From an uncultured bacterium (GTDB lineage: Bacteria > Patescibacteriota > Minisyncoccia > UBA6257 > 2-01-FULL-56-20), in assembly GCA_963707865.1 (NCBI GenBank), contig OY970175.1, forward strand, positions 822,028-886,027: a DNA stretch of 64,000 nucleotides. The letters are read 5' to 3'. Position numbers and translations under genes: made by a program. Positions within the stretch are counted from its first letter, which is position 1. Each line of letters opens with the position of its first letter. Below the pieces are notes generated by a model. It saw only the letters and a list, made by a program, of their open reading frames with translations. It had not been told where the DNA came from and searched no databases. Shown piece after piece: positions 20,104 to 64,000 of this stretch.

Positions 20104-20910
20104 TTGAATGTTGCTACAATGGACAGTATGCCGTCGCTTTCAGAGAAGGAACTCATCGTTTTTGATATGGATGGGACGCTCACGCCGAGCAAATCGGTTG
20201 CCGATCGGGAAATGATCGCACTGCTTCTCCAATTGCTTGAGAAAAAGAAGGTGGCGGTGATCGGCGGTGGAAAATACGCCCTCTTCCGGGAGCAGATTAT
20301 TGCCCGCCTGCCACACCGTGACGCGCGGCTCGCAAATCTTTTCCTTTTCCCGACTACTTCAACGACGTTCTATCGCTACCAAGGCGGGGCATGGAAGAAT
20401 GTATATACGCTTCTTTTGCCCAAGCGGGACCGGGCAAAGATACGAAACGCATTTAAAGCGGTTTTCAAAGAAATGGATTACGAGCATCCAAAGAAGACAT
20501 ACGGTCCCGTGATTGAGGATCGCGGGACGCAAGTTTCTTTTTCCGCGCTGGGCCAAGACGTGGTGGCCATGCTGGGGAAAAGAGGCATTCGGATGAAAGA
20601 AGAATGGAAGAGGAAGTACACGCCTTTGAAGATGGAAATAGCGCGAGCGGTCGCGAAGCGCTTGCCCGGCCTTGAGGTGCGCGCCGCGGGCTACACGACC
20701 ATTGACGTTACGCGGAAAGGCATTGACAAGGGCTACGGCATCCGGCAGATAGAGAAATACCTTCACGTGCCCGTTAAAAAAATGCTTTTTGTGGGTGATG
20801 CGCTCTACCCGGGCGGCAACGACTACGCCGCGCGGAGGACTGGGGTGCAATGCATCGCCGTGGGCGGACCGGAGGACGCGAAAAAAATAATTAAAAAAAT
20901 TCTTCGTTGA
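20104..20910 (+). CDS. HAD-IIB hydrolase of the eukaryotic-type phosphomannomutase (PMM) family
   Basis: FDMDGTLTP (HAD motif I), IGGGKYALF, AAGYTTIDVTRKGIDKGYGIR and FVGDALYPGGNDY line up with PMM motifs FDVDGTLT / VGGSDFEKV / DVFPDGWDKRYCL / FFGDKTMPGGNDHE. Confidence 0.65.
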   Translation: MNVATMDSMPSLSEKELIVFDMDGTLTPSKSVADREMIALLLQLLEKKKVAVIGGGKYALFREQIIARLPHRDARLANLFLFPTTSTTFYRYQGGAWKNVYTLLLPKRDRAKIRNAFKAVFKEMDYEHPKKTYGPVIEDRGTQVSFSALGQDVVAMLGKRGIRMKEEWKRKYTPLKMEIARAVAKRLPGLEVRAAGYTTIDVTRKGIDKGYGIRQIEKYLHVPVKKMLFVGDALYPGGNDYAARRTGVQCIAVGGPEDAKKIIKKILR

Positions 20911-21579: not shown

Positions 21580-22158
21580 ATGGACACCCTGGTTTTTGAC
21601 ATTGAAACCCAGAATTTTTTCACCGACCCGGACGTGGGATGGGACAATTTCGCGGCGCTCAAAATATCGGTCGTCGGCGTCTATTCCTACTTGTACGATA
21701 AGTATTTCACCTTTGAGGAGCACGAGATGGCCAAGCTTGCCGAGCTCTTTGCGGAAGCGCGGCGGATCGTCGGATTCAGCATGAACCGTTACGACGTGCC
21801 GGTGCTGAATAATTACTTCCAGGGGTTGGGCGCCGCGGTGCCGAATCTTTGGGAGAAAGAGCGCGTGGATCTGCTTGAGGAAATTGAGATGGCGGCGAAG
21901 CAGCGGGTGAGCCTGAGCCGGCTCGCCGAAGCGAACCTCGGCTTGAAAAAAGACCATCATGGTTCGGAGGCGATCGGTCTGTATCGGGAAGGCAAGATGG
22001 ACGAGCTTAAGGCATATTGCCTGAAGGATGTGGAGCTCACAAAGGCACTCTACGATCTGTATCAGAAACAAAATTATCTTTTGATGCCCGATAGGCAAAC
22101 GGGCGAGATCGTGAAAGTGGCGTTTGCGAAACCGCTTGCGGCAGCCGGACTTTTCTAA
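21580..22158 (+). CDS. DEDD-type 3'-5' exonuclease-like / RNase H-like protein (PolB exonuclease-like)
   Basis: LVFDIETQNF (Exo I-like) ... FSMNRYDVPVL ... YCLKDVELTKALY (Exo III-like YxxxD). Confidence 0.55.
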   Translation: MDTLVFDIETQNFFTDPDVGWDNFAALKISVVGVYSYLYDKYFTFEEHEMAKLAELFAEARRIVGFSMNRYDVPVLNNYFQGLGAAVPNLWEKERVDLLEEIEMAAKQRVSLSRLAEANLGLKKDHHGSEAIGLYREGKMDELKAYCLKDVELTKALYDLYQKQNYLLMPDRQTGEIVKVAFAKPLAAAGLF

Positions 22159-22196
22159 TCTCCACCGCACCTTCGCGGTTTTGATATGATAACGAC

Positions 22197-22517
22197 ATGA
22201 AGGTGCTCTACTGGCTTCCTCGCATATTGGCCATATCCTTTGCGGTGTTTCTGGCAATTTTTTCTCTTGATGTTTTTGGAGAAGGATACGGTTTTTGGGG
22301 GACCGTCACCGCATTCATTGTTCACAATATTCCATCCATCCTGATTATCGCGGCTCTTATCATTGCATGGCGTTATGAGAGAATCGGGGGCGCGATATTT
22401 ATTGTGCTGGGCATTATCGCGACAGCGTTTTTTCACACCACGGGCAGCATCGTTTCGTTCGTCGCGGTTTCTTTGCCCCTCTTCGTAATCGGCGTTCTTT
22501 TTCTCGCCGGGCAATAA
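22197..22517 (+). CDS. small hypothetical membrane protein (3 TM)
   Basis: 106 aa, three hydrophobic helices. Confidence 0.45.
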   Translation: MKVLYWLPRILAISFAVFLAIFSLDVFGEGYGFWGTVTAFIVHNIPSILIIAALIIAWRYERIGGAIFIVLGIIATAFFHTTGSIVSFVAVSLPLFVIGVLFLAGQ

Positions 22518-22520
22518 AAC

Positions 22521-23747
22521 ATGAAAAAGATATACCTTGACTACGCGGCATCCACGCCGGTTGATCCCGCGGTTTTGCGCGCGATGATACCGTATTTTTC
22601 CGAGCGGTTTGGCAATCCCGGTTCACTCCATGCATTCGGGCAGGAGGCGATCGCGGCAGTGGATCGCTCGCGCGAAATGATCGCGAGGGCGCTCGGCGTG
22701 GACTTCCGGCAAGTGATCTTTACGGCATCTGCGACGGAGGCGAACAATCTTGCGCTCCGCGGCGCGGTGCAAAAATTCCGCGAGGCGCACGGGGGGGGCA
22801 AGCACAGGGCAGGCAGGTACGGAGTAAGCGGGAACGTGCCGGCACCTCGCATCATCGTTTCCGCCGTTGAGCATGAATCGGTGTTTGAAACCGCGCGGGA
22901 TTTGGAACGGCAAGGTGCCGAAGTGGTATATGTGCCGGTGAACGCGAGGGGGATCGTAGATTTAAAAAAGATGAAAGAATCCCTGGCAGAAGACACCGCA
23001 ATTGTTTCTATGATGTATGCAAACAATGAGATCGGAACCATCCAGCCGATTTCCGAAATCGCGGAAATTATCAAGGAATTCCGAGAAAAAAGGCGCTCAC
23101 AGCGATCAGTAACCGGCGGTCAGTTTCCAGTTTTCCATACCGATGCCGCGCAGGCGTTCCAGTTTTTGGATTGCGATGTTCAGGGGTTGGGAGTGGATTT
23201 AATGACAATTTCTTCCCACAAAATCTACGGCCCAAAGGGTGCGGGAGCGCTCTTTGTGCGTGACGAAAAAATGCTGGCGCCGGTCGTGATGGGCGGCGGT
23301 CAGGAGTTCGGGCTGCGCTCCGGTACGGAAAACGTTCCGGCAATCGTCGGGTTTGCGAAGGCGGTTGAACTTGCCGCGGCCATGCGGGAAAAAGAGTCCA
23401 AGCGTATTGCTGCGCTGCGCGATCGCCTGTGGAGTGGGATAAAAGAAACTTTCCCGGACGCCGAGGTAAACGGTTCAGAGAACGCTTCGGAGAAATTGCC
23501 GAATTTTCTGAACGTTTATTTCCCCGGCCACGCAGCACAGGATTTACTCACAAAGTTTGATTTGAAGGGTCTTGCAGCATCCTCTGGTTCCGCCTGCCAC
23601 TCCCGCGCGATGGAGGCCCCCTACGTCATTGAAGCACTTGGCCATCGGAAGGAGCGCGCGAAGGCAAGTATTCGCTTCAGTTTGGGACGGCCGACAACGG
23701 AAAGAGAGATAAAGGAGGCACTGAAAATAATGGAGACTGCTCGGTAG
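22521..23747 (+). CDS. cysteine desulfurase (NifS/IscS family, class V aminotransferase)
   Basis: YLDYAASTPVDP; SSHKIYGPKGAGALFVR (PLP-lysine motif); SSGSACHS active-site Cys loop. Confidence 0.85.
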   Translation: MKKIYLDYAASTPVDPAVLRAMIPYFSERFGNPGSLHAFGQEAIAAVDRSREMIARALGVDFRQVIFTASATEANNLALRGAVQKFREAHGGGKHRAGRYGVSGNVPAPRIIVSAVEHESVFETARDLERQGAEVVYVPVNARGIVDLKKMKESLAEDTAIVSMMYANNEIGTIQPISEIAEIIKEFREKRRSQRSVTGGQFPVFHTDAAQAFQFLDCDVQGLGVDLMTISSHKIYGPKGAGALFVRDEKMLAPVVMGGGQEFGLRSGTENVPAIVGFAKAVELAAAMREKESKRIAALRDRLWSGIKETFPDAEVNGSENASEKLPNFLNVYFPGHAAQDLLTKFDLKGLAASSGSACHSRAMEAPYVIEALGHRKERAKASIRFSLGRPTTEREIKEALKIMETAR

Positions 23748-23985
23748 GTCTGTGGGGAGTCGCTGGTTATGCACAGGCAAGGAATAATGGGGGTGACGGC
23801 GATATGTTAAAATAACATTAAAGATTTTAAGGGTTGTTTTGCCGTGTTTAGCTCCCGAAAACAAAGGTCAAGATTAAGCAAATTAAAATCCTCTCATAAG
23901 AACGTTGCCCACCGTATTTAAAATATAAAGGCCGATTACGGCATGAAGGTAAACGTTGTGATAAAGAAAATACTAAGGATAAAAA

Positions 23986-26900
23986 ATGAATAGCACCAGT
24001 TTTAATTTTAGAAAATTCGTTCCCTTGTTTTTAATAATAGTGTTTGCCCTCGCCGGGTCGGTCTTTGTACAGCATGCGAGTGCAGGAACAATAGGTTCTG
24101 TAGGCATCGCGTCGCCGGCTGGCGGCCAGAAGTGGAGCGGTTCTCATAATATCACATGGACCACCACGGGAAATGCAGGTGGAACAAGTACGGTGAATAT
24201 TTATTATTGCCATGATACTCCGAGCGGCGGTTGTGGCGATGGAATAAATACACTTATTCAGGCAAGCGTCGCCGACGATAGTAGTAGCAGCACCGTAGAA
24301 ACATATAGCTGGAATACAACGTCCCCGTCCATACCAGATGGCTCCGATTATAAAATCAGGGTGTCCGCTTCGGCCGATGCTGGCGTTTCGGGTCTTTCGG
24401 GCACCGACTTCACCGTGGACAACACGCCGCCCACCATCTCTATTGGTTCCCCCTCGGCCTTGCTTACCGCTACAACTTCGGTCGCCTACACTATTACTTA
24501 TAGTGGTGCTAGTACGGTGACCCTCGTAGATGGAAACGTGACAGTGAATAAGACGGGTAGCGCCACGGGCACGGCCGCAGTCACCGGAAGCGGCACTTCC
24601 ACTCGCACTGTTACGATCTCAGGCATCGGCGGCACTGGAACGTTGAGTATCACGATTGCTACGGGGACCGCCTATGATGATGCAACCCCACCCAATTACG
24701 CCACAGGGACTGCCGCCAGCGCCACCTTCGCCGTGGACAATACAGCGCCCGCTGCGCCAACAGCAGTGACGCTTACCGATCCGATCAATTTAACAAACCA
24801 AGCAAGCGTTACGGTTACCGGCGATGCCGCGGGTGAAGCCGATGGCTCTGTGGTGACTTGTTCGGTCAGCGACCCAAGTGTAGTTCATACGGTTCAAGCT
24901 ACGAGTTCTGCAGCGACCAATGCATTTACCATTCCTTTAGACGTTCACACTTTGAACGATGGCACCTCGACTGCTACGTGTTACGTTACTGATCTTGCGG
25001 GAAATGTCGGTGCGACCCGAACCGATACGGCTACAAAAGATACGGTCGCGCCGACCATCTCCGTAAGCACGTCCTCGGCAACGCTTACGAACACCGGCCC
25101 CGTCACGTACACCGTTACGTACACCGGCGCTAGTGCGGTGACCCTTGTCCCGGGCGACATCACGCTCAATGCGAGCGGCACTGCCGCGGGCACCGTAGGG
25201 GTCTCCGGCACCAGCACCAGCGGGGGGACCGTCACGATCTCGGGCATCACCGGCGACGGGACGCTGGGTATCACGATCGCCGCGGGTACGGCGTCTGACG
25301 CTGCAGGGAACACCGCCACAGGGACTGCCGCCAGCGCCACCTTCGACGTGGACAATACCGCGCCGACCATCTCCGTAAGCACGTCCTCGGCAACGCTTAC
25401 GAACACCGGCCCCGTCACGTATACCGTTACGTACACCGGCGCTAGTGCGGTGACCCTTGTCAATGGAAACGTAACGCTTAACAAGACGGGCACGGCGACA
25501 GGAACCGTAGGGGTCTCCGGCACCAGCACCAGCGGGGGGACCGTCACGATCTCGGGCATCACCGGCGACGGGACGCTGGGTATCACGATCGCCGCGGGTA
25601 CGGCGTCTGACGCTGCAGGGAACACCGCCACAGGGACTGCCGCCAGCGCCACCTTCGACGTGGACAATACCGCGCCGACCGATCTAGTGGTTAATGCCGT
25701 CTTTGCGGCTTCAACGACCAAACAAGGCAACGCTTCAGTAACGATCGCAAGCTCCGGCGATGCGTCCAACACGGTTTGGTTCGCGCCGCCAGGAACCGTG
25801 GCCTTCGCTACAGACACGACCATGACCAAAGCGGGAGGAACCGATATTTCAATCCTTGCCCCCGCCAATGAGGGTTCCTACAAACTTTTTGTGATTGACG
25901 CCGCCGGCAATGTTTCGTCGGGATCCAATGCGATACTCACCGTGGACAATACGCCGCCGACCATCTCCGTAAGCACGTCCTCGCTCCCGGTCACGAACAC
26001 CGGCCCCGTCACCTACACCGTTACGTACACCGGAGCCAGCTCCGTAACGCTTGTCAACGGAGACGTAACGCTTAACAAGACGGGCACCGCGACAGGCACC
26101 GTAGGGGTCTCCGGCACCAGCACCAGCGGGGGGACCGTCACGATCTCGGGCATCACCGGCGACGGGACGCTGGGTATCACGATCGCCGCGGGTACGGCGT
26201 CTGACGCTGCAGGGAACACCGCCACAGGGACTGCCGCCAGCGCCACCTTCGACGTGGACAATACCGCGCCGACCATCTCCGTAAGCACGTCCTCGGCAAC
26301 GCTTACGAACACCGGCCCCGTCACGTACACCGTTACGTACACCGGCGCTAGTGCGGTGACCCTTGTCCCGGGCGACATCACGCTCAATGCGAGCGGCACT
26401 GCCGCGGGCACCGTAGGGGTCTCCGGCACCAGCACCAGCGGGGGGACCGTCACGATCTCGGGCATCACCGGCGACGGGACGCTGGGTATCACGATCGCCG
26501 CGGGTACGGCGTCTGACGCTGCAGGGAACACCGCCACAGGGACTGCCGCCAGCGCCACCTTCGACGTGGACAATACCGCGCCGACCATCTCCGTAAGCAC
26601 GTCCTCGCTCCCGGTCACGAACACCGGCCCCGTCACGTACACCGTTACGTACACCGGCGCTAGTGCGGTGACCCTTGTCCCGGGCGACATCACGCTCAAT
26701 GCGAGCGGCACTGCCGCGGGCACCGTAGGGGTCTCCGGCACCAGCACCAGCGGGGGGACCGTCACGATCTCGGGCATCACCGGCGACGGGACGCTGGGTA
26801 TCACGATCGCCGCAGGTACGGCGTCTGACGCTGCAGGGAACACCGCCACAGGGACTGCCGCCAGCGCCACCTTCGACGTGGACAATACCGCGCCGACCAT

Positions 26901-29900
26901 CTCCGTAAGCACGTCCTCGGCAACGCTTACGAACACCGGCCCCGTCACGTACACCGTTACGTACACCGGCGCTAGTGCGGTGACCCTTGTCCCGGGCGAC
27001 ATCACGCTCAATGCGAGCGGCACTGCCGCGGGCACCGTAGGGGTCTCCGGCACCAGCACCAGCGGGGGGACCGTCACGATCTCGGGCATCACCGGCGACG
27101 GGACGCTGGGTATCACGATCGCCGCGGGTACGGCGTCTGACGCTGCAGGGAACACCGCCACAGGGACTGCCGCCAGCGCCACCTTCGACGTGGACAATAC
27201 CGCGCCGACCATCTCCGTAAGCACGTCCTCGGCAACGCTTACGAACACCGGCCCCGTCACGTACACCGTTACGTACACCGGCGCTAGTGCGGTGACCCTT
27301 GTCCCGGGCGACATCACGCTCAATGCGAGCGGCACTGCCGCGGGCACCGTAGGGGTCTCCGGCACCAGCACCAGCGGGGGGACCGTCACGATCTCGGGCA
27401 TCACCGGCGACGGGACGCTGGGTATCACGATCGCCGCGGGTACGGCGTCTGACGCTGCAGGGAACACCGCCACAGGGACTGCCGCCAGCGCCACCTTCGA
27501 CGTGGACAATACCGCGCCGACCATCTCCGTAAGCACGTCCTCGCTCCCGGTCACGAACACCGGCCCCGTCACGTACACCGTTACGTACACCGGCGCTAGT
27601 GCGGTGACCCTTGTCCCGGGCGACATCACGCTCAATGCGAGCGGCACTGCCGCGGGCACCGTAGGGGTCTCCGGCACCAGCACCAGCGGGGGGACCGTCA
27701 CGATCTCGGGCATCACCGGCGACGGGACGCTGGGTATCACGATCGCCGCGGGTACGGCGTCTGACGCTGCAGGGAACACCGCCACAGGGACTGCCGCCAG
27801 CGCCACCTTCGACGTGGACAATACCGCGCCGACCATCTCCGTAAGCACGTCCTCGGCAACGCTTACGAACACCGGCCCCGTCACGTACACCGTTACGTAC
27901 ACCGGCGCTAGTGCGGTGACCCTTGTCCCGGGCGACATCACGCTCAATGCGAGCGGCACTGCCGCGGGCACCGTAGGGGTCTCCGGCACCAGCACCAGCG
28001 GGGGGACCGTCACGATCTCGGGCATCACCGGCGACGGGACGCTGGGTATCACGATCGCCGCGGGTACGGCGTCTGACGCTGCAGGGAACACCGCCACAGG
28101 GACTGCCGCCAGCGCCACCTTCGACGTGGACAATACCGCGCCGACCATCTCCGTAAGCACGTCCTCGGCAACGCTTACGAACACCGGCCCCGTCACGTAC
28201 ACCGTTACGTACACCGGCGCTAGTGCGGTGACCCTTGTCCCGGGCGACATCACGCTCAATGCGAGCGGCACTGCCGCGGGCACCGTAGGGGTCTCCGGCA
28301 CCAGCACCAGCGGGGGGACCGTCACGATCTCGGGCATCACCGGCGACGGGACGCTGGGTATCACGATCGCCGCGGGTACGGCGTCTGACGCTGCAGGGAA
28401 CACCGCCACAGGGACTGCCGCCAGCGCCACCTTCGACGTGGACAATACCGCGCCGACCATCTCCGTAAGCACGTCCTCGGCAACGCTTACGAACACCGGC
28501 CCCGTCACGTACACCGTTACGTACACCGGCGCTAGTGCGGTGACCCTTGTCCCGGGCGACATCACGCTCAATGCGAGCGGCACTGCCGCGGGCACCGTAG
28601 GGGTCTCCGGCACCAGCACCAGCGGGGGGACCGTCACGATCTCGGGCATCACCGGCGACGGGACGCTGGGTATCACGATCGCCGCGGGTACGGCGTCTGA
28701 CGCTGCAGGGAACACCGCCACAGGGACTGCCGCCAGCGCCACCTTCGACGTGGACAATACCGCGCCGACCATCTCCGTAAGCACGTCCTCGGCAACGCTT
28801 ACGAACACCGGCCCCGTCACGTACACCGTTACGTACACCGGCGCTAGTGCGGTGACCCTTGTCCCGGGCGACATCACGCTCAATGCGAGCGGCACTGCCG
28901 CGGGCACCGTAGGGGTCTCCGGCACCAGCACCAGCGGGGGGACCGTCACGATCTCGGGCATCACCGGCGACGGGACGCTGGGTATCACGATCGCCGCGGG
29001 TACGGCGTCTGACGCTGCAGGGAACACCGCCACAGGGACTGCCGCCAGCGCCACCTTCGACGTGGACAATACCGCGCCGACCTACTCGGTGGCATATACC
29101 GTAGGCGGAAGCCCCGTGACCTACCTCAATGAAAATGACCATGTCGTGATTACGGCGACCTTCAACGAAGACATGGCTGTCTCGCCGACACCTAAGATTC
29201 AGTTAGACGGTGCTGCGACTGCGTTATCGGCGACGGACATGGTGAGGGACACCGCCACCAGCTCTCACTACAACTGGTTCGCCGGTCAAACTGGAGACGG
29301 CGTGATGACGCCGACCGTGACCGTGGGAACGGATGTGGCGGGGAACACAGTGACCGAGGCTAGTTCTACGAAAACAACAATAATGGTGGACAACACAGCG
29401 CCGGTCGTTGACCCAGGTGCAAGTGTCGGAACGGTGGCGGAAGAATTTACGCAGAACGGATCTTCCACCGACGAAGGAGGTTCGGGCGTTAATACGGGCA
29501 CCTATCAATGGACCAAAGTGCTCGGTCCCGGTACGGTTACCTTTGGCAGTTCCTCCACCGCCATCACAACCGTAAGCGCCAATGTTGACGGTGCGTATGG
29601 TATCAAACTGGCCGTTAGTGATAATATCGGCAACATTGGTTCAAGCACCGTCGGTTTTGTGTGGTCATCCACCAATGTTCCTATAGTGTCTTACAATCCG
29701 GCCAGCGGGGCGACGGGGGTTTCTATAGCTACTGGCACGGCAATCGTAACTTTTAGCGCTGACATCACAATAGTAAGTTCCACTAAGGTTGATTTGGTAG
29801 ACGATGCCAGCAGCACTTCCATGAAAAATGGCGCGGTGACAGCTACCAGCAGCACTCTCCTCATTCCTTACGTCGGGCTGGGAAATGCGAGAGTGTATAG

Positions 29901-30825
29901 GATCAATATTCTGGCTGGCGCCGTGAGAGATGCGACCGGACATATCAACTCCGACGGCATTTCCTACTTCACGACCGCGCCAGTTCGCGACTTGACTCCG
30001 CCGACAGTTTCGACCCAGAGCCCCGAAGCGAGCACTACTCTCGCTGGCAATTTTGTCTCGAACGCCTACGTTGATTTTTCGAAAGCCATGGACCCGACTA
30101 CGATCGGCACCTCTACCATCAAGCTTTGCGTGGCGAGCGATACCAGCTGTAGCACTCCTTTCGATATCCCGGTAATCATCTTGGGCAATTCTGGCAGACG
30201 CGCCATCATCGGCGGACCGGGCCTCACGCTGGCTTACAGCACGAATTACTGGATTTGGGTAAAGGGTGGCGCGACCGGTGTGAAGGATTTATCCGGCAAC
30301 CCGCTGGCCTTTGGCGGAAGTCCCGTGGATAGCTATGGCTCGCCCAATAATGGGAATCCGGATTATTCTGGTTTCGCTACCGGCGCCCAGTCGCCTGGGG
30401 TGTTGAACATAGACAACGTCAGTATAAATCCCGCGAGATCGTATGCCGTTGCCACGAATACCTATGAGAATGGTTGGGAATGGTTCGTGAGCTTGACCAT
30501 CCCCGAGAACCAAACCTCGGTTCAGATGATGTTCAGTAACTTCACGAACGGCAGCGGTGGTGTTATTCCGGCCACAGACAACATCAGGTATTATTCGGCG
30601 CAATCTACCAATGCGACGTCATCAAGCCCGATCTCAAGTGCCGCAGCGGGAGAGTACCCCACGAGCACTATGAGCTTTGATCCTGTTACAAGTGACACCC
30701 AGTCCGGTATTGCCGGCATCCAGATCGTTGTGGGAGTTCAAGTGAAGATTCCCACGTCAACGACGAGCGGGGGAGCATACTCCGCGCAATTTAAGGTGAG
30801 GTCTTCCGGTCCTCCTCCCGGGTAG
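23986..30825 (+). CDS. giant secreted repeat protein (Ig-like/SbsA_Ig-like repeats; putative surface/S-layer-like or adhesin protein)
   Basis: 2279 aa. Signal peptide MNSTSFNFRKFVPLFLIIVFALAGSVFVQHASA. At least 12 near-identical 104-aa repeats DNTAPTISVSTSS(ATL/LPV)TNTGPVTYTVTYTGASAVTLVPGDITLNASGTAAGTVGVSGTSTSGGTVTISGITGDGTLGITIAAGTASDAAGNTATGTAASATFDV. Thr/Ser-rich, with Ig-like C-terminal modules. Confidence 0.85.
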   Translation: MNSTSFNFRKFVPLFLIIVFALAGSVFVQHASAGTIGSVGIASPAGGQKWSGSHNITWTTTGNAGGTSTVNIYYCHDTPSGGCGDGINTLIQASVADDSSSSTVETYSWNTTSPSIPDGSDYKIRVSASADAGVSGLSGTDFTVDNTPPTISIGSPSALLTATTSVAYTITYSGASTVTLVDGNVTVNKTGSATGTAAVTGSGTSTRTVTISGIGGTGTLSITIATGTAYDDATPPNYATGTAASATFAVDNTAPAAPTAVTLTDPINLTNQASVTVTGDAAGEADGSVVTCSVSDPSVVHTVQATSSAATNAFTIPLDVHTLNDGTSTATCYVTDLAGNVGATRTDTATKDTVAPTISVSTSSATLTNTGPVTYTVTYTGASAVTLVPGDITLNASGTAAGTVGVSGTSTSGGTVTISGITGDGTLGITIAAGTASDAAGNTATGTAASATFDVDNTAPTISVSTSSATLTNTGPVTYTVTYTGASAVTLVNGNVTLNKTGTATGTVGVSGTSTSGGTVTISGITGDGTLGITIAAGTASDAAGNTATGTAASATFDVDNTAPTDLVVNAVFAASTTKQGNASVTIASSGDASNTVWFAPPGTVAFATDTTMTKAGGTDISILAPANEGSYKLFVIDAAGNVSSGSNAILTVDNTPPTISVSTSSLPVTNTGPVTYTVTYTGASSVTLVNGDVTLNKTGTATGTVGVSGTSTSGGTVTISGITGDGTLGITIAAGTASDAAGNTATGTAASATFDVDNTAPTISVSTSSATLTNTGPVTYTVTYTGASAVTLVPGDITLNASGTAAGTVGVSGTSTSGGTVTISGITGDGTLGITIAAGTASDAAGNTATGTAASATFDVDNTAPTISVSTSSLPVTNTGPVTYTVTYTGASAVTLVPGDITLNASGTAAGTVGVSGTSTSGGTVTISGITGDGTLGITIAAGTASDAAGNTATGTAASATFDVDNTAPTISVSTSSATLTNTGPVTYTVTYTGASAVTLVPGDITLNASGTAAGTVGVSGTSTSGGTVTISGITGDGTLGITIAAGTASDAAGNTATGTAASATFDVDNTAPTISVSTSSATLTNTGPVTYTVTYTGASAVTLVPGDITLNASGTAAGTVGVSGTSTSGGTVTISGITGDGTLGITIAAGTASDAAGNTATGTAASATFDVDNTAPTISVSTSSLPVTNTGPVTYTVTYTGASAVTLVPGDITLNASGTAAGTVGVSGTSTSGGTVTISGITGDGTLGITIAAGTASDAAGNTATGTAASATFDVDNTAPTISVSTSSATLTNTGPVTYTVTYTGASAVTLVPGDITLNASGTAAGTVGVSGTSTSGGTVTISGITGDGTLGITIAAGTASDAAGNTATGTAASATFDVDNTAPTISVSTSSATLTNTGPVTYTVTYTGASAVTLVPGDITLNASGTAAGTVGVSGTSTSGGTVTISGITGDGTLGITIAAGTASDAAGNTATGTAASATFDVDNTAPTISVSTSSATLTNTGPVTYTVTYTGASAVTLVPGDITLNASGTAAGTVGVSGTSTSGGTVTISGITGDGTLGITIAAGTASDAAGNTATGTAASATFDVDNTAPTISVSTSSATLTNTGPVTYTVTYTGASAVTLVPGDITLNASGTAAGTVGVSGTSTSGGTVTISGITGDGTLGITIAAGTASDAAGNTATGTAASATFDVDNTAPTYSVAYTVGGSPVTYLNENDHVVITATFNEDMAVSPTPKIQLDGAATALSATDMVRDTATSSHYNWFAGQTGDGVMTPTVTVGTDVAGNTVTEASSTKTTIMVDNTAPVVDPGASVGTVAEEFTQNGSSTDEGGSGVNTGTYQWTKVLGPGTVTFGSSSTAITTVSANVDGAYGIKLAVSDNIGNIGSSTVGFVWSSTNVPIVSYNPASGATGVSIATGTAIVTFSADITIVSSTKVDLVDDASSTSMKNGAVTATSSTLLIPYVGLGNARVYRINILAGAVRDATGHINSDGISYFTTAPVRDLTPPTVSTQSPEASTTLAGNFVSNAYVDFSKAMDPTTIGTSTIKLCVASDTSCSTPFDIPVIILGNSGRRAIIGGPGLTLAYSTNYWIWVKGGATGVKDLSGNPLAFGGSPVDSYGSPNNGNPDYSGFATGAQSPGVLNIDNVSINPARSYAVATNTYENGWEWFVSLTIPENQTSVQMMFSNFTNGSGGVIPATDNIRYYSAQSTNATSSSPISSAAAGEYPTSTMSFDPVTSDTQSGIAGIQIVVGVQVKIPTSTTSGGAYSAQFKVRSSGPPPG
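25048..29085 (+). repeat. coding tandem repeat array, 312-bp unit, ~12 high-identity copies (two sub-variants, SATL/SLPV) interrupted by one divergent ~270-bp insert (25681-25950)
   Basis: Unit boundaries (gcgccgacc) recur at 25048, 25360, 25672, then 26266, 26578 ... 29074 every 312 bp. Copies differ by only a few SNPs. Confidence 0.9.
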
Positions 30826-30847
30826 TATCTGAAACAAGAATAAGAGT

Positions 30848-32119
30848 ATGACTAAAACAAGACTCGTTGTCATTTGCCTTGTCGGGGTACTCGTTCCTTT
30901 GAGTGGAGCATTTGCCACGGCGTCAACCTCATCGGAGGTGAGTAGCACGTTGAGCGCCCCCACGCTTTCCCCTATGCTTCCCAACGGCACGCTCGTCGTC
31001 CCGCCGTCGGCGTCTTTCGCATCCGGCGATTATCATTCCTCGCTTAGCGTAACCCTTACCGCAGCCGGCTCGCATGCCATCTATTACACACTGAATGGCA
31101 CGGGGGATCCGGTATGCGCTACGGGGACGGCGTATACAAGCGCGCTCACGATCAATAGTGCGACGACATTGAAAGCCGTCGCCTGCTACAGCGACGATAA
31201 CAGCGTTTCTTCGACGATCGCCCCCTATGCCTACACCTTTAGCTGCAGTCCGGCGACGGTTTCCAATGGATCGTTTTCTTCGTATTCCTCCGGTTGTTTA
31301 ATCAGCTGTTATTCTGGTTATACGCCGAGCGGCGGATCGTGTGTAGCTTCCGGTAGTAGTGGCAGCGGAGGCAGCGGGGGCGGCGGGGGTTCGTACAGCA
31401 ATCCCTATACCATTACGATCAACGGCGGCGCGACGACGACTGCTTCGGCGAACGTCACCCTTGTGCTCACCTCGCTCGGGGGGATGAACTGGGTGTGGAT
31501 TTCAAATGATCCGAGCTTCGCCACGTCAACGGGAACCGGCTGGATTCCATTCCAGGCGACCTATCCATGGACGTTGGCCTCGGGACCGGGAAATAAGACC
31601 GTCTATGCAGAATTCGGGAGCGCAAGCAATACGGTGGCCTTTGCGGGATCCGCCCAGGCCAGCATAACGGTTGTGGGCGGTGGCACTGGCGGGACAACCG
31701 GTAGCGGCGGTAGCGGCGGAACATCGGGAACATCGCGCGCGTCGCAACTACAGCTTCTTAATATGCTCATTGCGGAGCTTCGGCTCCTTCTCCAACAGGC
31801 GTTGGCACAAGGAATAACGCTTCCGCCGGGCGTGGCCGCGTATCTCAATGCGGGATCCGCGACATCAACGCTTTCGGCCATAACGCGTGACCTTACTATC
31901 GGCTCAATCGGCACGGACGTGAGCGCTCTCCAGGCGTTTCTCATCTTGCAGAACAAAGGCCCCGCCGCTAGTGCTTTGGCTGCGGTTGGTGCCACCGGGC
32001 ACTTTGGATTGCTCACCCAGGCAGCGCTTGCGGAGTATCAGGCGGCGGTGGAGATTACGCCCCCCACGGGATACTTCGGTCCTCGTACGAGAGCGTATTT
32101 GCAGAGCATAGGATACTAG
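30848..32119 (+). CDS. secreted protein with chitobiase-C-like N-terminal module, Gly/Ser linkers and C-terminal peptidoglycan-binding domain (PG_binding_1)
   Basis: Signal peptide. AIYYTLNGTGDP (CHB_HEX_C-like). C-term DLTIGSIGTDVSALQAFL...GHFGLLTQAALAEYQAAVEITPPTGYFGPRTRAYL matches the PG_binding_1 pattern. Confidence 0.55.
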   Translation: MTKTRLVVICLVGVLVPLSGAFATASTSSEVSSTLSAPTLSPMLPNGTLVVPPSASFASGDYHSSLSVTLTAAGSHAIYYTLNGTGDPVCATGTAYTSALTINSATTLKAVACYSDDNSVSSTIAPYAYTFSCSPATVSNGSFSSYSSGCLISCYSGYTPSGGSCVASGSSGSGGSGGGGGSYSNPYTITINGGATTTASANVTLVLTSLGGMNWVWISNDPSFATSTGTGWIPFQATYPWTLASGPGNKTVYAEFGSASNTVAFAGSAQASITVVGGGTGGTTGSGGSGGTSGTSRASQLQLLNMLIAELRLLLQQALAQGITLPPGVAAYLNAGSATSTLSAITRDLTIGSIGTDVSALQAFLILQNKGPAASALAAVGATGHFGLLTQAALAEYQAAVEITPPTGYFGPRTRAYLQSIGY

Positions 32120-32281
32120 AACCCATCTCAAAAATATTCTAGCCCGCGTTCCTGGGTATTTCCCCGAAGGGCAAGGCGCAAGGCGGAGACAGTAGCAGCG
32201 CTACGGCTCCGCCGCAGACGCACGGGTTAGAACCCTCGTGAAACTTTTTGTTGCCGGTTTCGTACAATAAAATGAAAATAT

Positions 32282-33580
32282 ATGAATAGTGGGAACAAAA
32301 AGACACTTGGAGTTATCGCCGGAATCCTTGTGATAGGACTTCTTTTGGGCGTTGCGATAAGTGCGCCGCAGGCGCGGGCGAACGTATTCACCGACTTTTT
32401 CAGCAAGCTGTTTTCGCCGTTTGTGGGGCAGCCGCCGTCCACTAGTTCTTCCGCGAACACTGCCACGGGCGTTGGCGTTTCCTCATCTGTTCCACTGTAT
32501 CAGCCGGTCATTGACTACGAGCAGGCGGTGGTTAACGCGGTGAAAAAAGCGTCGCCCGCGGTCGTTTCCATCATTATTTCCAAGAACGTTCCTATCGTTG
32601 AACAGTGTCCCTACAATCCTTTCGGCAATGTTCCGCCGGAGTTTCAGCAATTTTTTGGGAATGATTTCCAGGGACTCACCCAGCCATGCGATACGGGAAA
32701 AACCCAACTCCAGGAAGTTGGCGGCGGCAGCGGTTTCATCATTTCTTCAGACGGCCTGATCCTTACTAATAAGCATGTCGTATCCGATTCAAGCGCATCC
32801 TATACCGTGATTATGAGCGATGGTACAAAATATGATGCGACGGTTCTGGCCCGTGATTCAAATCAGGATTTGGCGGTCGTGAAAATCAAAGCGACGGGAT
32901 TGCCCACCGTTACCTTAGGCGATTCGGATAGTTTGGAACTTGGCCAGACCGCGATTGCGATCGGAAATGCGCTCGGCGAATTCTCCAACACGGTTTCCGT
33001 CGGCGTGATCTCCGGACTCGCGCGGACGGTGACCGCTTCCGCACCCGATACGGGAACGCAGGAGACCATCCAAGGCGTTATCCAAACCGATGCCGCGATC
33101 AATCCGGGCAACTCCGGCGGTCCTCTCGTTAATCTGCGCGGGGAGGTGATCGGCATTAACACCGCGATCGCATCCAACGCGGAGAACATCGGCTTCGCGA
33201 TCCCCGTGAACCGCGCGAAGCACGATATCAGTTCGGTAAAAACGTCTGGCGAGCTCCAAACGCCCTACCTCGGCGTGCGGTATCTCGCGGTCACCCCGGA
33301 CATTGCGACGCAGCAGAAGCTTCCCGTTGACTATGGCGCGCTCGTCCGCGGGAGCGACAAAGGACCGGCCGTGGAGCCGAATTCCCCTGCGGCGAAAGCA
33401 GGAATCCAGGCAGAAGATATTATCCTTTCCGTGAACGGCCAAAAAATTGACAGCAGCCATGACCTCGGCACGGTGATCTCGCAATTCAATGTGGGCGACA
33501 CGGTGACGCTAGTTGTGAACCGCGGCGGGCAACAGATTACACTGACGGCGACGCTCGCCCAACGTCCTGCGGGACAGTAG
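32282..33580 (+). CDS. HtrA/DegP-family serine protease with PDZ domain
   Basis: Signal anchor. GSGFIISSDGLILTNKHVV (His), DLAVVKI (Asp), TDAAINPGNSGGPLVN (Ser), and a C-terminal PDZ domain. Confidence 0.85.
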   Translation: MNSGNKKTLGVIAGILVIGLLLGVAISAPQARANVFTDFFSKLFSPFVGQPPSTSSSANTATGVGVSSSVPLYQPVIDYEQAVVNAVKKASPAVVSIIISKNVPIVEQCPYNPFGNVPPEFQQFFGNDFQGLTQPCDTGKTQLQEVGGGSGFIISSDGLILTNKHVVSDSSASYTVIMSDGTKYDATVLARDSNQDLAVVKIKATGLPTVTLGDSDSLELGQTAIAIGNALGEFSNTVSVGVISGLARTVTASAPDTGTQETIQGVIQTDAAINPGNSGGPLVNLRGEVIGINTAIASNAENIGFAIPVNRAKHDISSVKTSGELQTPYLGVRYLAVTPDIATQQKLPVDYGALVRGSDKGPAVEPNSPAAKAGIQAEDIILSVNGQKIDSSHDLGTVISQFNVGDTVTLVVNRGGQQITLTATLAQRPAGQ

Positions 33581-39536: not shown

Positions 39537-42500
39537 ATGAATAGTAAAAAATTGATTTCGGTGGCACTCACCGCGACCACAGTTTTGTGGGCGCTGGGGA
39601 TTGCCACCCTTCCTCTCGCGAACGCACAGACCGCATCTGGCCTTCAGGATCAGATCACGGCCTTGCTCGCGCAGATCCAACAGTTGCAGGCGCAATTGGG
39701 AAGCACGCAGGGCATGGGTTCCACGTCTTCGTACTCATTCACCAGCGACCTCACCGTTGGTTCAAAGGGTGCCGACGTGACCGCGCTCCAGCAGCTCCTG
39801 ATTAACAAGGGATACCTTACCGCGGTCTCGGCTCCGACGGGTTACTTCGGGTCTTTGACCCAGGCGGCCTTGGGGAAGTTCCAGGCGGCGAATGGCATCT
39901 CTCCTACAGCCGGATACTTTGGTCCTAAGACCAGGGCATTCGTGAATTCTCTGAGTGTTGGTACGGGTACTGGCACGACGACCACCTATCCAGCTGGTTG
40001 CACTTCGTCGGTTGGCTACAGTCCAACGACTGGTCAATCGTGTGCTTCGGGTACCACCACGACGACGGTGACTCCGCCGGCGACCGGCCTCGCGGTTTCT
40101 CTTAGTTCGTCCAATCCGGCGGCTGGTTCGCTCATCTCTTCCGCTTCGGCGGCAGCGGCGCGCGTTCCGGTCCTCGCGATTAACCTAACGGCGTCCAACT
40201 CGGGCGCGGTAACGGTGACGGACATTAAGGTCCACAAGACGGGCGTCCTTTCAGACAGCTCCATCTCCGGCGCATACTTGGTCCAGAACGGCCAGGTGCT
40301 CTACCAGTACACATCGCTCAACCAGGGCGTTATTGACTTCTCCGGCTTGGCCCTTTCGGTTCCGGCCGGCCAGACGCAGACCCTCTCTGTGGCGATGGAC
40401 CCTTCAACGAACCTTGCTGCCGGCAACACGGTGGGATTTGCAGTAAACGCGGCCTCGGACATCACGGCGGTTGATGCGTCTAACAACGTGCTCACGCCTT
40501 CCGGTGGCTTCCCGCTCCTCGGCAACATCTTCACGGTGACGACGGTCAGCAACCCGTCCCTTGCGTCGTTGACGACGGCATCTACGTCCATCGGGACACA
40601 GGTTACGGCGGGTACGCAGAATAACATCGTCGGCGCGTGGACCTTCACGGGTCAGAACAGCTTGACATACCTCAAGGGCATCAAGTTCACGGTTATCGGT
40701 TCGGCAAACAACGCCGACATCCGGAACGTGAAGCTTAATGTAAACGGCGCGCAGGTGGGTCCCTCCTTGGCGACCGTCGGAGCGAACGGGGTGGCCTACT
40801 TTGACCTCTCGTCCTCTCCTGCGAGCATAAACACCGGAGGCAACAACATCCAGGTGTTTGCGGATGTCATGGGTTCTCCTTCAAAGAACTTCCAGTTTGA
40901 GATTTTGAACTCCTACGACGTCTACGCGATTGACTCGCAGTACAATGTCCCGATCTCAGTATCGGTGGTGGGTGGTGCGGGTACGGTGGTTACGATCCAA
41001 CAGGGTCAGATCACGGTCTCGCAGGACTCCGCGACCCCGACCGGCAACATTGCAGTCGGACAGTCCGGCGTCGTGCTCGCGAAGTTTGACATCTACGCGG
41101 CTGGCGAGCCGGTCAAGGTGAAATTCCTCGGCTTCAAGATCGCCCTCACGAACGTGGCGACGAGTTCTAGCGTGACTGCGTTGAGCAACATGCTCAAGAA
41201 CGTTTCGCTCGTTGATGACGCAGGTGGCCAGGTAGGTACCACCATCAACACGCCTCCGTCGGGCAATACATGTGACGTAACAACGGGTCAGAGTGGATAC
41301 ACGTCCAAATCTGACGGTACGTTCACGTCCGCCACGGTGGCTTACGTTGACTGCTTTGGTACGAACTCTTCGCCGATCAACTACATCATTCCGGCGAATA
41401 CGACTCGGGTGTTGTCCTTGAAGGCCGACATCCAGTCCACGGCGAGCTTCAGCACGATAGCGGCTTCCCTCTTGGCCGAGTCCAGCAACTTGCAGGGCTT
41501 GACCTCGAGCCAGACGGGTTCTTCGTCCGGCGCATCGGGCAGCGCGCTCTCGCTGCAGTCCAGCTTACTCTCTATTTCCGCAAACTCGGCCTACGGTAAT
41601 CAGACCGTTACACCGAACAGCACTGGCGTAAAGATCGGTTCCTACGCGTTCACGGCTTCGTCCGCGAGCGGTGTTCAGATCAACACGGTGAGCATCGAAC
41701 CGGTCAAGAATGGCAGCGGTTCCAGCGACATCCAGAACATGAAAGTCATGATCGGCGGCACGCAGTTCGGCACGACGCAGGGCGTAGTGGCTGACGCGGG
41801 AACGTACACGTTCTCCGGATCCGCCTTCACGGTCCCTGCCGGCGGCACGACCTACGTTGACGTGTATGCCGACATACTCTCCAACGCGACCTCGTCAATG
41901 AGCCCGGCCACTACGCTTACCGGTTGCTCGGGAACAAGCGTTATTTCCTACGGCGCGGTTTCCTGCACTGGCAGCGGTACTGACGGCGAGAACTTGACCG
42001 TTACCTCGAGTGGCGCGACTGTGGCAGTTGGTCTTGACTCCTCCGCTCCTGCGGCAGGTCTACTTGTCATGCCTTCCACAGGGAACTTGCTTGCAGCCTT
42101 CCGCTTCACGGAGACGACGAATGTTGAGAACGTGAAGATTACGGATCTCACGATCAAGCAGACCACGTCCGCGGGGGCTTCCGCGTACCAGAATGTGACG
42201 ATCTCCAACGGTTCCACGGTAGTCGGTACGTCCGGCAGCGCGTCTAGCACGAGCGGCGGCTTCGCGTACGTCTTCCACTTCGGGACCCCGCCCATCGTTC
42301 TACAGAACAACACGCTCGTGCTCACCCTGAAGGGTAATGTGCCGAGTTACACTGATCTCGGCAGCTCGTTGGACAACACGACGTCCACCTTCGGGATTGC
42401 CGCGACGTCTTCGGTAACGGCGTTGGGCGCAAGCTCCAACATCTCGTCGCAGATTTCGGGTACGGCGACCGGCAACACATTGACGGTTCTCCGCACGACG

Positions 42501-43022
42501 CTCACCCCGACCGCGACGGCGCTCGGAAGCCTCACGAGCCGCGTGAAGTCCTCGGTTGACAACCTCGCAACCATCACCCTTGCGGCGAATAACGCCGGAT
42601 CGGCCATGGTACGGACGTTGGCGATCAACTTCAGCGGTAACGCGATCTCTTCAACGGCGACGTCCTCGTTTGTCTTGCGCGACACGAACAATGTTGACGT
42701 GACAGACAGCACGAGCTACGGTGCCGTCCAGACTGGCGGTCCGTGCACGTCGAGCTGTACGCTCACGTGGACGTTCTCCACGAGCACGAATCCGTTGGTC
42801 GTCTCTGCGGGCGGTTCCTACACGCTCACGCTCCAGACGGATGATACCCACAGTTTCGGGGTTGGTGTTGGCAGCGCCTCGGTCAGCTTGAGCGCGACGC
42901 TCCAGACCACGGCGGCATTGACCTACTACGACAACAGCACGGCGACCGGCAGCACAATCAGCTTGCCGAACACCGTGGTGCCGTCCAGTATCACGAACAT
43001 CACGTTCGCGGCTGGGACATAG
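39537..43022 (+). CDS. large secreted Ser/Thr/Gly-rich surface protein with N-terminal coiled coil, PG_binding_1 domain and multiple Ig-like modules
   Basis: 1161 aa. Signal peptide. QDQITALLAQIQQLQAQL. PG_binding_1: DLTVGSKGADVTALQQLLINKGYL...GYFGSLTQAALGKFQAANGISPTAGYFGPKTRAFV. The rest is low-complexity S/T/G/A/V beta-rich sequence. Confidence 0.8.
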   Translation: MNSKKLISVALTATTVLWALGIATLPLANAQTASGLQDQITALLAQIQQLQAQLGSTQGMGSTSSYSFTSDLTVGSKGADVTALQQLLINKGYLTAVSAPTGYFGSLTQAALGKFQAANGISPTAGYFGPKTRAFVNSLSVGTGTGTTTTYPAGCTSSVGYSPTTGQSCASGTTTTTVTPPATGLAVSLSSSNPAAGSLISSASAAAARVPVLAINLTASNSGAVTVTDIKVHKTGVLSDSSISGAYLVQNGQVLYQYTSLNQGVIDFSGLALSVPAGQTQTLSVAMDPSTNLAAGNTVGFAVNAASDITAVDASNNVLTPSGGFPLLGNIFTVTTVSNPSLASLTTASTSIGTQVTAGTQNNIVGAWTFTGQNSLTYLKGIKFTVIGSANNADIRNVKLNVNGAQVGPSLATVGANGVAYFDLSSSPASINTGGNNIQVFADVMGSPSKNFQFEILNSYDVYAIDSQYNVPISVSVVGGAGTVVTIQQGQITVSQDSATPTGNIAVGQSGVVLAKFDIYAAGEPVKVKFLGFKIALTNVATSSSVTALSNMLKNVSLVDDAGGQVGTTINTPPSGNTCDVTTGQSGYTSKSDGTFTSATVAYVDCFGTNSSPINYIIPANTTRVLSLKADIQSTASFSTIAASLLAESSNLQGLTSSQTGSSSGASGSALSLQSSLLSISANSAYGNQTVTPNSTGVKIGSYAFTASSASGVQINTVSIEPVKNGSGSSDIQNMKVMIGGTQFGTTQGVVADAGTYTFSGSAFTVPAGGTTYVDVYADILSNATSSMSPATTLTGCSGTSVISYGAVSCTGSGTDGENLTVTSSGATVAVGLDSSAPAAGLLVMPSTGNLLAAFRFTETTNVENVKITDLTIKQTTSAGASAYQNVTISNGSTVVGTSGSASSTSGGFAYVFHFGTPPIVLQNNTLVLTLKGNVPSYTDLGSSLDNTTSTFGIAATSSVTALGASSNISSQISGTATGNTLTVLRTTLTPTATALGSLTSRVKSSVDNLATITLAANNAGSAMVRTLAINFSGNAISSTATSSFVLRDTNNVDVTDSTSYGAVQTGGPCTSSCTLTWTFSTSTNPLVVSAGGSYTLTLQTDDTHSFGVGVGSASVSLSATLQTTAALTYYDNSTATGSTISLPNTVVPSSITNITFAAGT

Positions 43023-63937: not shown

Positions 63938-64000
63938 GCGGGCGTAGCTTAGCCTGGCAGAGCGTCCCCCTGTCACGGGGAAGGTCGTGGGTTCAAATCC
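63938..64000 (+). tRNA. tRNA-Asp (anticodon GUC), 3'-partial at window edge
   Basis: Acceptor gcgggcg. D-arm gctt-agcctggca-gagc. Anticodon stem tcccc/gggga with loop ctGTCac. T-arm gtggg-ttcaaat-cc... truncated by the window end. Confidence 0.7.

Follow-up and report, generated by a model that had tools for sequence, protein, structure and literature searches.

Periscope Proteins, among them SasG, Aap, Rib/alpha C, Sgo_0707, Esp and CdrA, are secreted and carry, between non-repeated ends, a stalk of folded tandem domains with very high DNA identity, and this identity predicts that recombination will change the length of the stalk (Whelan et al. 2021, PMC8201768). Fibrillar adhesins are very long, thin proteins that combine a signal peptide with a stalk of repeated immunoglobulin-like (Ig-like) domains (Monzon et al. 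2021, PMC8286594). Here we describe a giant gene whose product shares features with both groups and which lies in a 64,000-nucleotide (nt) stretch of DNA, hereafter the window, from an uncultured bacterium of the Patescibacteriota (lineage Minisyncoccia; contig OY970175.1 of assembly GCA_963707865.1, positions 822,028 to 886,027 of the forward strand). The open reading frame (ORF) runs from window position 23986 to 30825 on the plus strand, starts with ATG and has an uninterrupted translation of 2279 amino acids (aa); from the ORF list, the translation and domain searches, we describe the product as a giant fibre protein of about 21 beta-sandwich domains. We hold with moderate confidence that it is a Periscope-type surface fibre of variable length, held on the cell wall by an adaptor protein that the next gene encodes, and that intragenic recombination together with gene conversion maintains the uniformity of its repeat units.

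This protein differs from the described Periscope Proteins in several respects. It belongs to a Patescibacterium and not to a cultured pathogen, its stalk is made of a Big_12-type module instead of G5-E, Rib or SHIRT domains, it has neither an LPXTG/sortase anchor nor a type 1 secretion system anchor, and its length variation is predicted for a protein known from one assembly. Unlike the fibrillar adhesins, it has no recognised adhesive domain or anchor motif, its ends being unannotated or only weakly matched. Taken alone, outside its operon context, the repeat protein is an ordinary representative of the well-known class of Periscope and fibrillar stalks; what adds weight to the case is the combination of an uncultured lineage with small genomes, a two-gene cassette of accessory nature, a terminal domain family for which there is no model, and a conserved operon.

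Tandem Repeats Finder reported two arrays with a period of 312 base pairs (bp), the first at 25047-25685 (2.0 copies, 93% matches) and the second at 25941-29082 (10.1 copies, 97% matches, score 5969). In the translation we found 12 in-register units of 104 aa, of which the first six start at aa 352, 456, 654, 758, 862 and 966 and units 7-12 at aa 1070, 1174, 1278, 1382, 1486 and 1590. Seven units (aa 758, 966, 1070, 1278, 1382, 1486 and 1590) are 100% identical in DNA, and the remaining five differ from this core by 5, 6, 7, 19 and 32 of 312 nt (overall range 0-32). An earlier reading made from the letters alone (the sequence-only reading) had proposed a secreted giant protein of 2279 aa with at least 12 near-identical 104-aa repeats, and the ORF translation, the repeat finder and the register of the units all confirm it. 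Two details of that reading were wrong, namely that the array is contiguous and that SATL and SLPV variants of the unit alternate. The SLPV variant is confined to units 3, 5 and 8 (aa 654, 862 and 1174), and the array is divided into 2+10 units by an unrelated 94-aa Ig-like domain (aa 560-653; 25663-25944, plus strand) with weak matches to BiPBP_C and Big_13. Units 1-2 (aa 352-559) accordingly occupy 25039-25662 and units 3-12 (aa 654-1693) occupy 25945-29064, both on the plus strand. A 13th, divergent copy of the unit (aa 145-250; 24418-24735, plus strand), with about 55% aa identity, contains a run of 32 nt that recurs exactly in each of the 12 core units, and no unit-like or terminal-domain-like sequence was found elsewhere in the window. 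Wholly inside the 312-bp array are also two antisense ORFs on the minus strand, at 25849-29142 (1097 aa) and 26013-29069 (1018 aa), which an automatic annotator could call as genes; both are by-products of a stop-free periodic sequence and not genes.

The differences between units all lie in the 5′ half, the 3′ 159 nt being the same in all 12 units except for one single-nucleotide polymorphism (SNP). Furthermore, the variant patches are common to units that are not neighbours: SLPV is common to units 3, 5 and 8, whereas units 2 and 3 have a second variable patch, NKTGTATGT (aa 456 and 654; VPGDITLNASGTAAGT versus VNG[ND]VTLNKTGTATGT). Unit 1 matches the core from nt 9 onwards despite the two diverged units and the insert that stand between it and the core block. 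A higher-order duplicate of 936 bp, with copies one SNP apart, is made up of units 4-6 and units 7-9. This mosaic of shared patches argues for gene conversion and unequal recombination and against a single recent burst of duplication. The main interpretation of the sequence-only reading, a secreted surface fibre whose near-identity implies recent expansion or concerted evolution and makes changes of length likely, is supported. The GC content at third codon positions (GC3) is 0.83 in the repeat units (25039-29064), 0.48-0.61 in the rest of the giant gene and 0.58-0.75 in the neighbouring genes, and this excess may stem from biased gene conversion towards GC or from a module of foreign origin.

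We found 492 relatives of the unit in a search of 5.8 billion proteins, with 45-56% identity over the repeat region only, and none of them is a full-length orthologue of the giant protein. These relatives are spread over many phyla (Verrucomicrobia, Planctomycetes, Desulfuromonadales, Hydrogenedentes, Bdellovibrio, Chloroflexi), contain up to 29 units per protein and are annotated Big_12, Big_3_3 or Big_13, many of them carrying PF19078 or PF13750. The sequence-only reading had proposed a profile search with one unit: the unit matches Big_12 (PF19078) end to end (1-102 of 102), but at 20.4 bits for a single unit, and 24.9 bits for the whole protein, the score stays under the Pfam gathering cut-off of 27 bits. 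An AlphaFold2 model of a single unit, made from a 60-sequence alignment, is an all-beta Ig-like sandwich with a predicted local distance difference test score (pLDDT) of 95.9, in agreement with the description of the repeat as beta-rich. The nearest solved structure is an Ig-like domain of the S-layer protein SbsC (2ra1), a remote match (E 7.5e-3, TM-score 0.51), and nothing meaningful came back when the PDB was searched by sequence with two units, with the N-terminal 351 aa or with the C-terminal 586 aa. By these comparisons the unit appears to be a cosmopolitan Ig-like module of the Big_12/Big_3_3 type, widespread as a stalk module.

How uniform the array is becomes clear from the same relatives. 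Among those with at least four units, the identity between units has a median of 0.55 and only 2 of 119 proteins reach a median of 0.9, so that the near-identity of the present array is far beyond chance; the giant protein is therefore an extreme of its repeat family. The Big_12/Big_3_3/Big_13 repeat proteins that we compared (P0001-P0120, from Verrucomicrobia, Planctomycetes, Desulfuromonadales, Bdellovibrio and others) share the module of about 104 aa, 54-71% identical at the domain level, but their own units are typically about 55% identical to each other, they do not have the terminal domain described below, and their other domains are unrelated. Short-read assemblies probably hide other near-identical arrays of this repeat family.

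The giant gene itself is certain, and the copy number of 12 is provisional. The neighbouring proteins are on record both from the 898,885-bp contig (NCBI, ENA) and from the Logan k-mer assembly of run ERR10755942, in which two contigs are 100% identical to window positions 21852-24728 and 29053-32392. These k=31 contigs end exactly where the 31-mers turn multi-copy, the first multi-copy 31-mers being at 24729 and 29052. Both junctions between the array and unique sequence are therefore independently supported, and the interior is not. The last part of the array (27553-29082, 1,530 bp) is perfectly periodic at a lag of 312, so that counting the copies in it would take reads of more than about 1.6 kb. 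The warning of the sequence-only reading that assemblers collapse such arrays was thus fair, and arrays of this kind are largely invisible in short-read metagenomes, as the two breaks in the k-mer assembly show.

The same evidence feeds the strongest of the alternatives, which is that the fibre is real and the number 12 is a product of assembly, the true array being shorter or longer because the assembler had to guess within the perfectly periodic tract. The perfect periodicity of the last 1,530 bp and the breaks at 24729 and 29052 are what this alternative would lead one to expect, and an exact look-up found no other record of the 2279-aa protein. However, the array contains internal landmarks (three SLPV units, a private SNP, the 94-aa insert and the 936-bp higher-order duplicate) that are unlike the result of a simple collapse and expansion, the reading frame is intact throughout, and a contig of 898,885 bp suggests a long-read or curated assembly. 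We regard a wrong copy number as a real possibility, if a doubtful one.

All domains of the giant protein, those of the stalk included, are extracellular-type Ig-like folds. It starts with a signal peptide (aa 1-33, MNSTSFNFRKFVPLFLIIVFALAGSVFVQHASA, followed by GT; 23986-24084, plus strand) in which we read the features of a Sec substrate: a basic n-region, a hydrophobic core at aa 8-34 and an A-x-A site with expected cleavage between HASA and GT. Both the signal peptide and the nature of the domains agree with the earlier claim that the protein is secreted. An N-terminal Ig-like domain (aa 34-144; 24085-24417, plus strand), the presumed distal tip, has a weak match to Big_7 below the cut-off (E 5.8e-4, 20.9 bits) and no relatives among the proteins retrieved. 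It is followed by the divergent unit and by a Big_13-like Ig-like domain (aa 251-351; 24736-25038, plus strand; E 8.8e-4, also below the cut-off). On the other side of the array, and likewise on the plus strand, lie an Ig-like domain (aa 1694-1801; 29065-29388) that is Big_13-like through a homologue, as it aligns to the repeats of the PF19077 protein P0142, a K319L-like PKD domain (29389-29664; PF22352 match at aa 1820-1889, 34 bits for a cut-off of 27) and two Big_5 modules, that is SbsA-type Ig-like modules (aa ~1894-2109; 29665-30312). The SbsA_Ig modules expected at the C-terminus from the first inspection are supported by transitive homology, the segment aligning with canonical PF13205 domains in relatives (E 1e-9 to 1e-14), but not directly, there being no Big_5 Pfam match on the giant protein itself even at E<1. 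NCBIfam returned no families for the giant protein. There is no transmembrane (TM) segment besides the signal peptide, searches of Pfam and NCBIfam found no known anchor family, SLH and other S-layer anchoring families included, and no LPXTG motif was seen when the C-terminus was read by eye.

The protein ends in an unannotated, Patescibacteria-associated beta-sandwich domain (aa ~2137-2279; 30394-30822, plus strand), which we propose to be the docking end. The last ~145 aa found no relatives in a word-indexed search, and a profile from the terminal-domain alignment gave 8 matches only in the set of 5.8 billion proteins, owing to the word index. An exhaustive HMMER scan of 1.84 billion representatives gave 569 matches, 373 of them at E <= 1e-10. 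Neither the query nor its relatives have a Pfam or NCBIfam model for this region, and the domain defines a new family of 569 representative clusters. In the best 150 of the 569 matches the domain is located at the extreme C-terminus in 95, directly after the signal peptide in 49 and internally in 6. All six members with a named organism are Patescibacteria (four Paceibacterota, one 'Patescibacteria group' and one Minisyncoccia); scans of GTDB representative genomes with the adaptor or the terminal domain alone returned no matches. The model of the domain is a confident beta-sandwich (pLDDT 95.6).

LPXTG motifs and C-terminal TM helices are missing from all 49 members with the domain at the N-terminus, which leaves the terminal domain as the only recurrent candidate for holding these proteins on the cell. 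Furthermore, the domain is absent from all repeat-module relatives retrieved, so that the giant protein is a chimera in which an end domain typical of the lineage is joined to a stalk module of cosmopolitan distribution. Near-identical repeats recur within the terminal-domain family with different stalk modules: internal duplications of at least 90% identity are present in 5 of 86 other terminal-domain proteins of at least 600 aa (P0214, P0249, P0328, P0234 and P0238), with unit lengths of 111, 190-193 and 330 aa and spans of 30-122 aa, compared with 948 aa in the window protein.

The adaptor gene (423 aa; 30848-32119, plus strand) begins 22 bp downstream of the giant gene. Its product has a signal peptide, a CHB_HEX_C_1/Fn3_assoc domain, a Cys-rich segment, Gly/Ser linkers, an Ig-like segment and a C-terminal PG_binding_1 domain. 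We found an adaptor gene directly downstream of the terminal-domain gene, on the same strand and with gaps of 2-80 bp, in 7/7 loci, that is in the window and in six other terminal-domain loci whose flanking genes are unrelated. Terminal domain and adaptor domain occurred only as adjacent pairs in the 318 kb of Patescibacteria DNA compared, and about 145 kb of sister-genome sequence contained neither of them. The N-domain of the window adaptor is 53% identical to that of its L015 counterpart (E 7e-38), and the terminal domains group by type of adaptor, with 47-59% identity within types and 32-45% between them.

The adaptors are of two types. Those of the window, L015 and L017 carry PG_binding_1, and the gene after them is not part of the pattern. 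Those of L013, L014, L019 and L020 carry Dockerin_1 (in L020 a precomputed 'weak' match) and are followed by a gene for a membrane-anchored protein of about 240 aa (L013:10404-11120, L014:11073-11798, L019:3880-4629 and L020:8108-8836). These third-gene proteins consist of a signal peptide, a Pro/Ala/Thr-rich spacer, a C-terminal TM helix and a basic tail; a Pfam cohesin domain is present in three of the four (L013, L014 and L019), the L020 protein having no Pfam match on record and being cohesin-like by eye only. In L020 the terminal domain stands at the N-terminus, from which it follows that the link to the adaptor holds for both polarities. The four dockerin loci resemble the anchoring scaffoldins of cellulosomes in their plug-and-socket mounting, a Dockerin_1 adaptor paired with a membrane-anchored protein. 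The window system differs from cohesin-dockerin tethering in its use of PG_binding_1 and in the absence of enzymes, and the proposed link from terminal domain to CHB_HEX_C_1 has no known counterpart. The window adaptor lacks a dockerin, and a scan of the genes next to it detected no cohesin gene. In L017 a large ORF (L017:2-3109, plus strand; at least 1035 aa, truncated by the contig end) lies directly upstream of a 2375-aa terminal-domain fibre gene and may be a second fibre gene in tandem. In the library searched, we found no paper tying cohesin, dockerin or CHB_HEX_C to surface fibres of Patescibacteria, and the operon of fibre, adaptor and, in some loci, cohesin appears undescribed so far.

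The two genes lie among housekeeping genes, with FtsK, cysteine desulfurase, HtrA and ClpB as neighbours. In sister Minisyncoccia genomes (19 contigs, of which L003-L012 are listed) the order is exonuclease, cysteine desulfurase, 126 bp and HtrA, and both the giant gene and the adaptor gene are missing from the same site in the listed contigs. From this gene order and from boundary alignment, the segment missing in the sisters is about 8.4 kb long (approximately 23748-32200). The giant gene and the adaptor gene behave as an accessory cassette, whether through gain here or through loss in the sister lineage.

We propose the following mechanism. The fibre would be secreted through the Sec pathway as a row of about 21 beta-sandwich domains, 12 of them near-identical Big_12-type stalk modules, and recombination between identical 312-bp units would make the stalk longer or shorter in frame and alter the reach of the fibre. 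The C-terminal end, with the PKD domain, the two Big_5 modules and the terminal domain, would be proximal to the cell, where the terminal domain would dock onto CHB_HEX_C_1 in the 423-aa adaptor, co-transcribed with the fibre, and PG_binding_1 would hold the complex on the cell's own peptidoglycan. In the dockerin variants, the connection would run from fibre to adaptor to membrane-anchored cohesin. Ig-like rods measure 3.5-4.5 nm per domain, and about 21 domains would accordingly display the N-terminal Ig-like domains some 75-95 nm from the cell, where they would probably attach to a host cell or a surface.

Two observations guide this proposal. Because CHB_HEX_C_1 is constant and what varies between adaptors is in every case a module for attachment to the cell, a tether is the simplest reading of the adaptor. 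The third-gene proteins have a TM anchor, which indicates attachment to the envelope of the producing cell and hence a proximal C-terminus; by analogy with these membrane-anchored dockerin variants, the PG_binding_1 domain of the window should bind the peptidoglycan of its own cell. We also put forward, tentatively and with less than even confidence, the wider idea that the terminal domain and the CHB_HEX_C_1 adaptor, with its PG_binding_1 end or its dockerin for a membrane-anchored cohesin, form an undescribed, Patescibacteria-specific fibre-mounting system, of which the window holds the most extreme cargo, with a stalk that recombination can reset.

Several points weigh against a fibre mounted in this manner. 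The adjacency of fibre and adaptor is linkage and not contact, and the 7 loci sampled were all picked through the terminal domain. The mirror-tree style correlation between the divergence of terminal domains and that of adaptors is weak (r 0.44, from 21 non-independent pairs), and we do not take it as a sign of contact. The structural matches of the terminal domain are remote only (GH123 N-domain, chaperone-usher pilins and CBM32, with TM-scores <= 0.47), no adhesive domain was recognised at the N-terminus, where the Big_7 and Big_13 matches are below threshold, and PG_binding_1 could in principle bind the wall of a host and not that of the cell itself. Finally, the copy number rests on one assembly, and no second strain or assembly with the giant gene was found, so that length variation is a prediction.

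Another alternative is a fibre of reversed orientation, in which the terminal domain is a distal, ligand-binding tip, an uncleaved N-terminal signal-anchor holds the protein, and the adaptor is a separate wall protein or an adhesin that binds the wall of the host. The remote likeness of the terminal domain to pilins and to beta-sandwiches of the carbohydrate-binding type (GH123 N-domain, CBM32) is consistent with a tip, and a role in host attachment has been speculated for the peptidoglycan-binding domains of Paceibacteria (PMC10936435). Nevertheless, in 49 of the 150 best members the domain comes right after the signal peptide, so that the tip would lie up against the membrane. The signal peptide ends in a canonical A-x-A site for cleavage, and the third-gene proteins, with a C-terminal TM anchor of their own and a Pfam cohesin in 3/4, point to the envelope of the producer. 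We consider the reversed orientation unlikely.

Less probable again is an S-layer or matrix protein that assembles itself into a lattice or a biofilm scaffold and does not project as a fibre. The giant protein resembles Geobacillus SbsA and SbsC in its chained Ig-like domains, its Big_5-type modules, Big_5 being the SbsA-type Ig domain, and the fold of its unit, whose best solved match is an Ig-like domain of SbsC (2ra1). That match is remote, however, with a TM-score of 0.51, and the protein differs from SbsA and SbsC in having no SLH or secondary-cell-wall-polymer-binding N-terminal domain, in its near-identical repeats and in being encoded by an accessory gene, with lattice formation not in evidence. 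The Pfam and NCBIfam searches found no S-layer anchoring domain, the gene is missing in the sister genomes, which is unlikely for an essential layer of the envelope, and near-identical tandem domains are typical of stalks (PMC8201768). A cellulosome-like assembly for glycan processing, with the fibre as scaffold and the partner genes serving polysaccharide degradation and not tethering, is the least probable alternative and a very improbable one, for although CHB_HEX_C_1, dockerin and cohesin are classically tied to glycoside hydrolases and cellulosomes and some members of the terminal-domain family have Pur_ac_phosph_N or fn3 domains, the fibre, adaptor and cohesin proteins have no catalytic domain and the window system has neither cohesin nor dockerin.

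Several further features were noted around the cassette and elsewhere in the window. A terminator-like hairpin (32221-32240, plus strand) found by consensus scan after the adaptor gene is a possible end of the two-gene unit; the scan for promoter and terminator consensus gave no more sites than shuffled sequences, and we make no regulatory claim from it. A mobile element or phage as the origin of the 8.4-kb segment was rejected, as a non-exhaustive search found no integrase, transposase or flanking repeat among the neighbours. The window has three complete transfer RNAs (tRNAs; Leu-tag, Gly-gcc and Arg-gcg) and a partial one at 63938-64000 (plus strand) that is cut by the window end; none adjoins the cassette, and there is therefore no sign of tRNA-targeted integration. 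A DUF7670 gene at 22197-22517 (plus strand), between exonuclease and cysteine desulfurase, is missing at that position in L003-L012 and constitutes a second, small lineage-specific difference beside the cassette. At 20104-20910 (plus strand) the window has a gene for a 268-aa HAD/PMM-like protein where the sisters have a phosphoglucomutase of 608-617 aa on the opposite strand (L003:7640-9466, minus strand), which indicates that the region around the cassette is more widely rearranged. Further downstream, an ORF of 1161 aa (39537-43022, plus strand) with PG_binding_1 at aa 78-134 and a weak Fn3-like match encodes a large wall-associated protein that has neither the terminal domain nor the repeat unit.

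The Patescibacteria account for a large part of bacterial diversity, and the majority are thought to live attached to other cells. To our knowledge, the molecules by which they make this contact are known just for a few cultured Saccharibacteria. The locus described here offers a concrete and testable candidate, in which fibre, adaptor and anchor go together in an operon that recurs in divergent Paceibacterota. In Paceibacteria attached to methanogens, secreted proteins with peptidoglycan-binding, Ig-like and PKD domains are highly expressed (PMC10936435), and in a cultured Saccharibacterium an envelope protein with a dockerin domain is essential (PMC10633639). The array described here extends the Periscope idea, which so far comes from cultured pathogens, to an uncultured lineage with small genomes. 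If the proposed mounting system is true, it would be a candidate for the apparatus by which episymbionts of the Paceibacterota type, for the most part never cultured, attach to their hosts.

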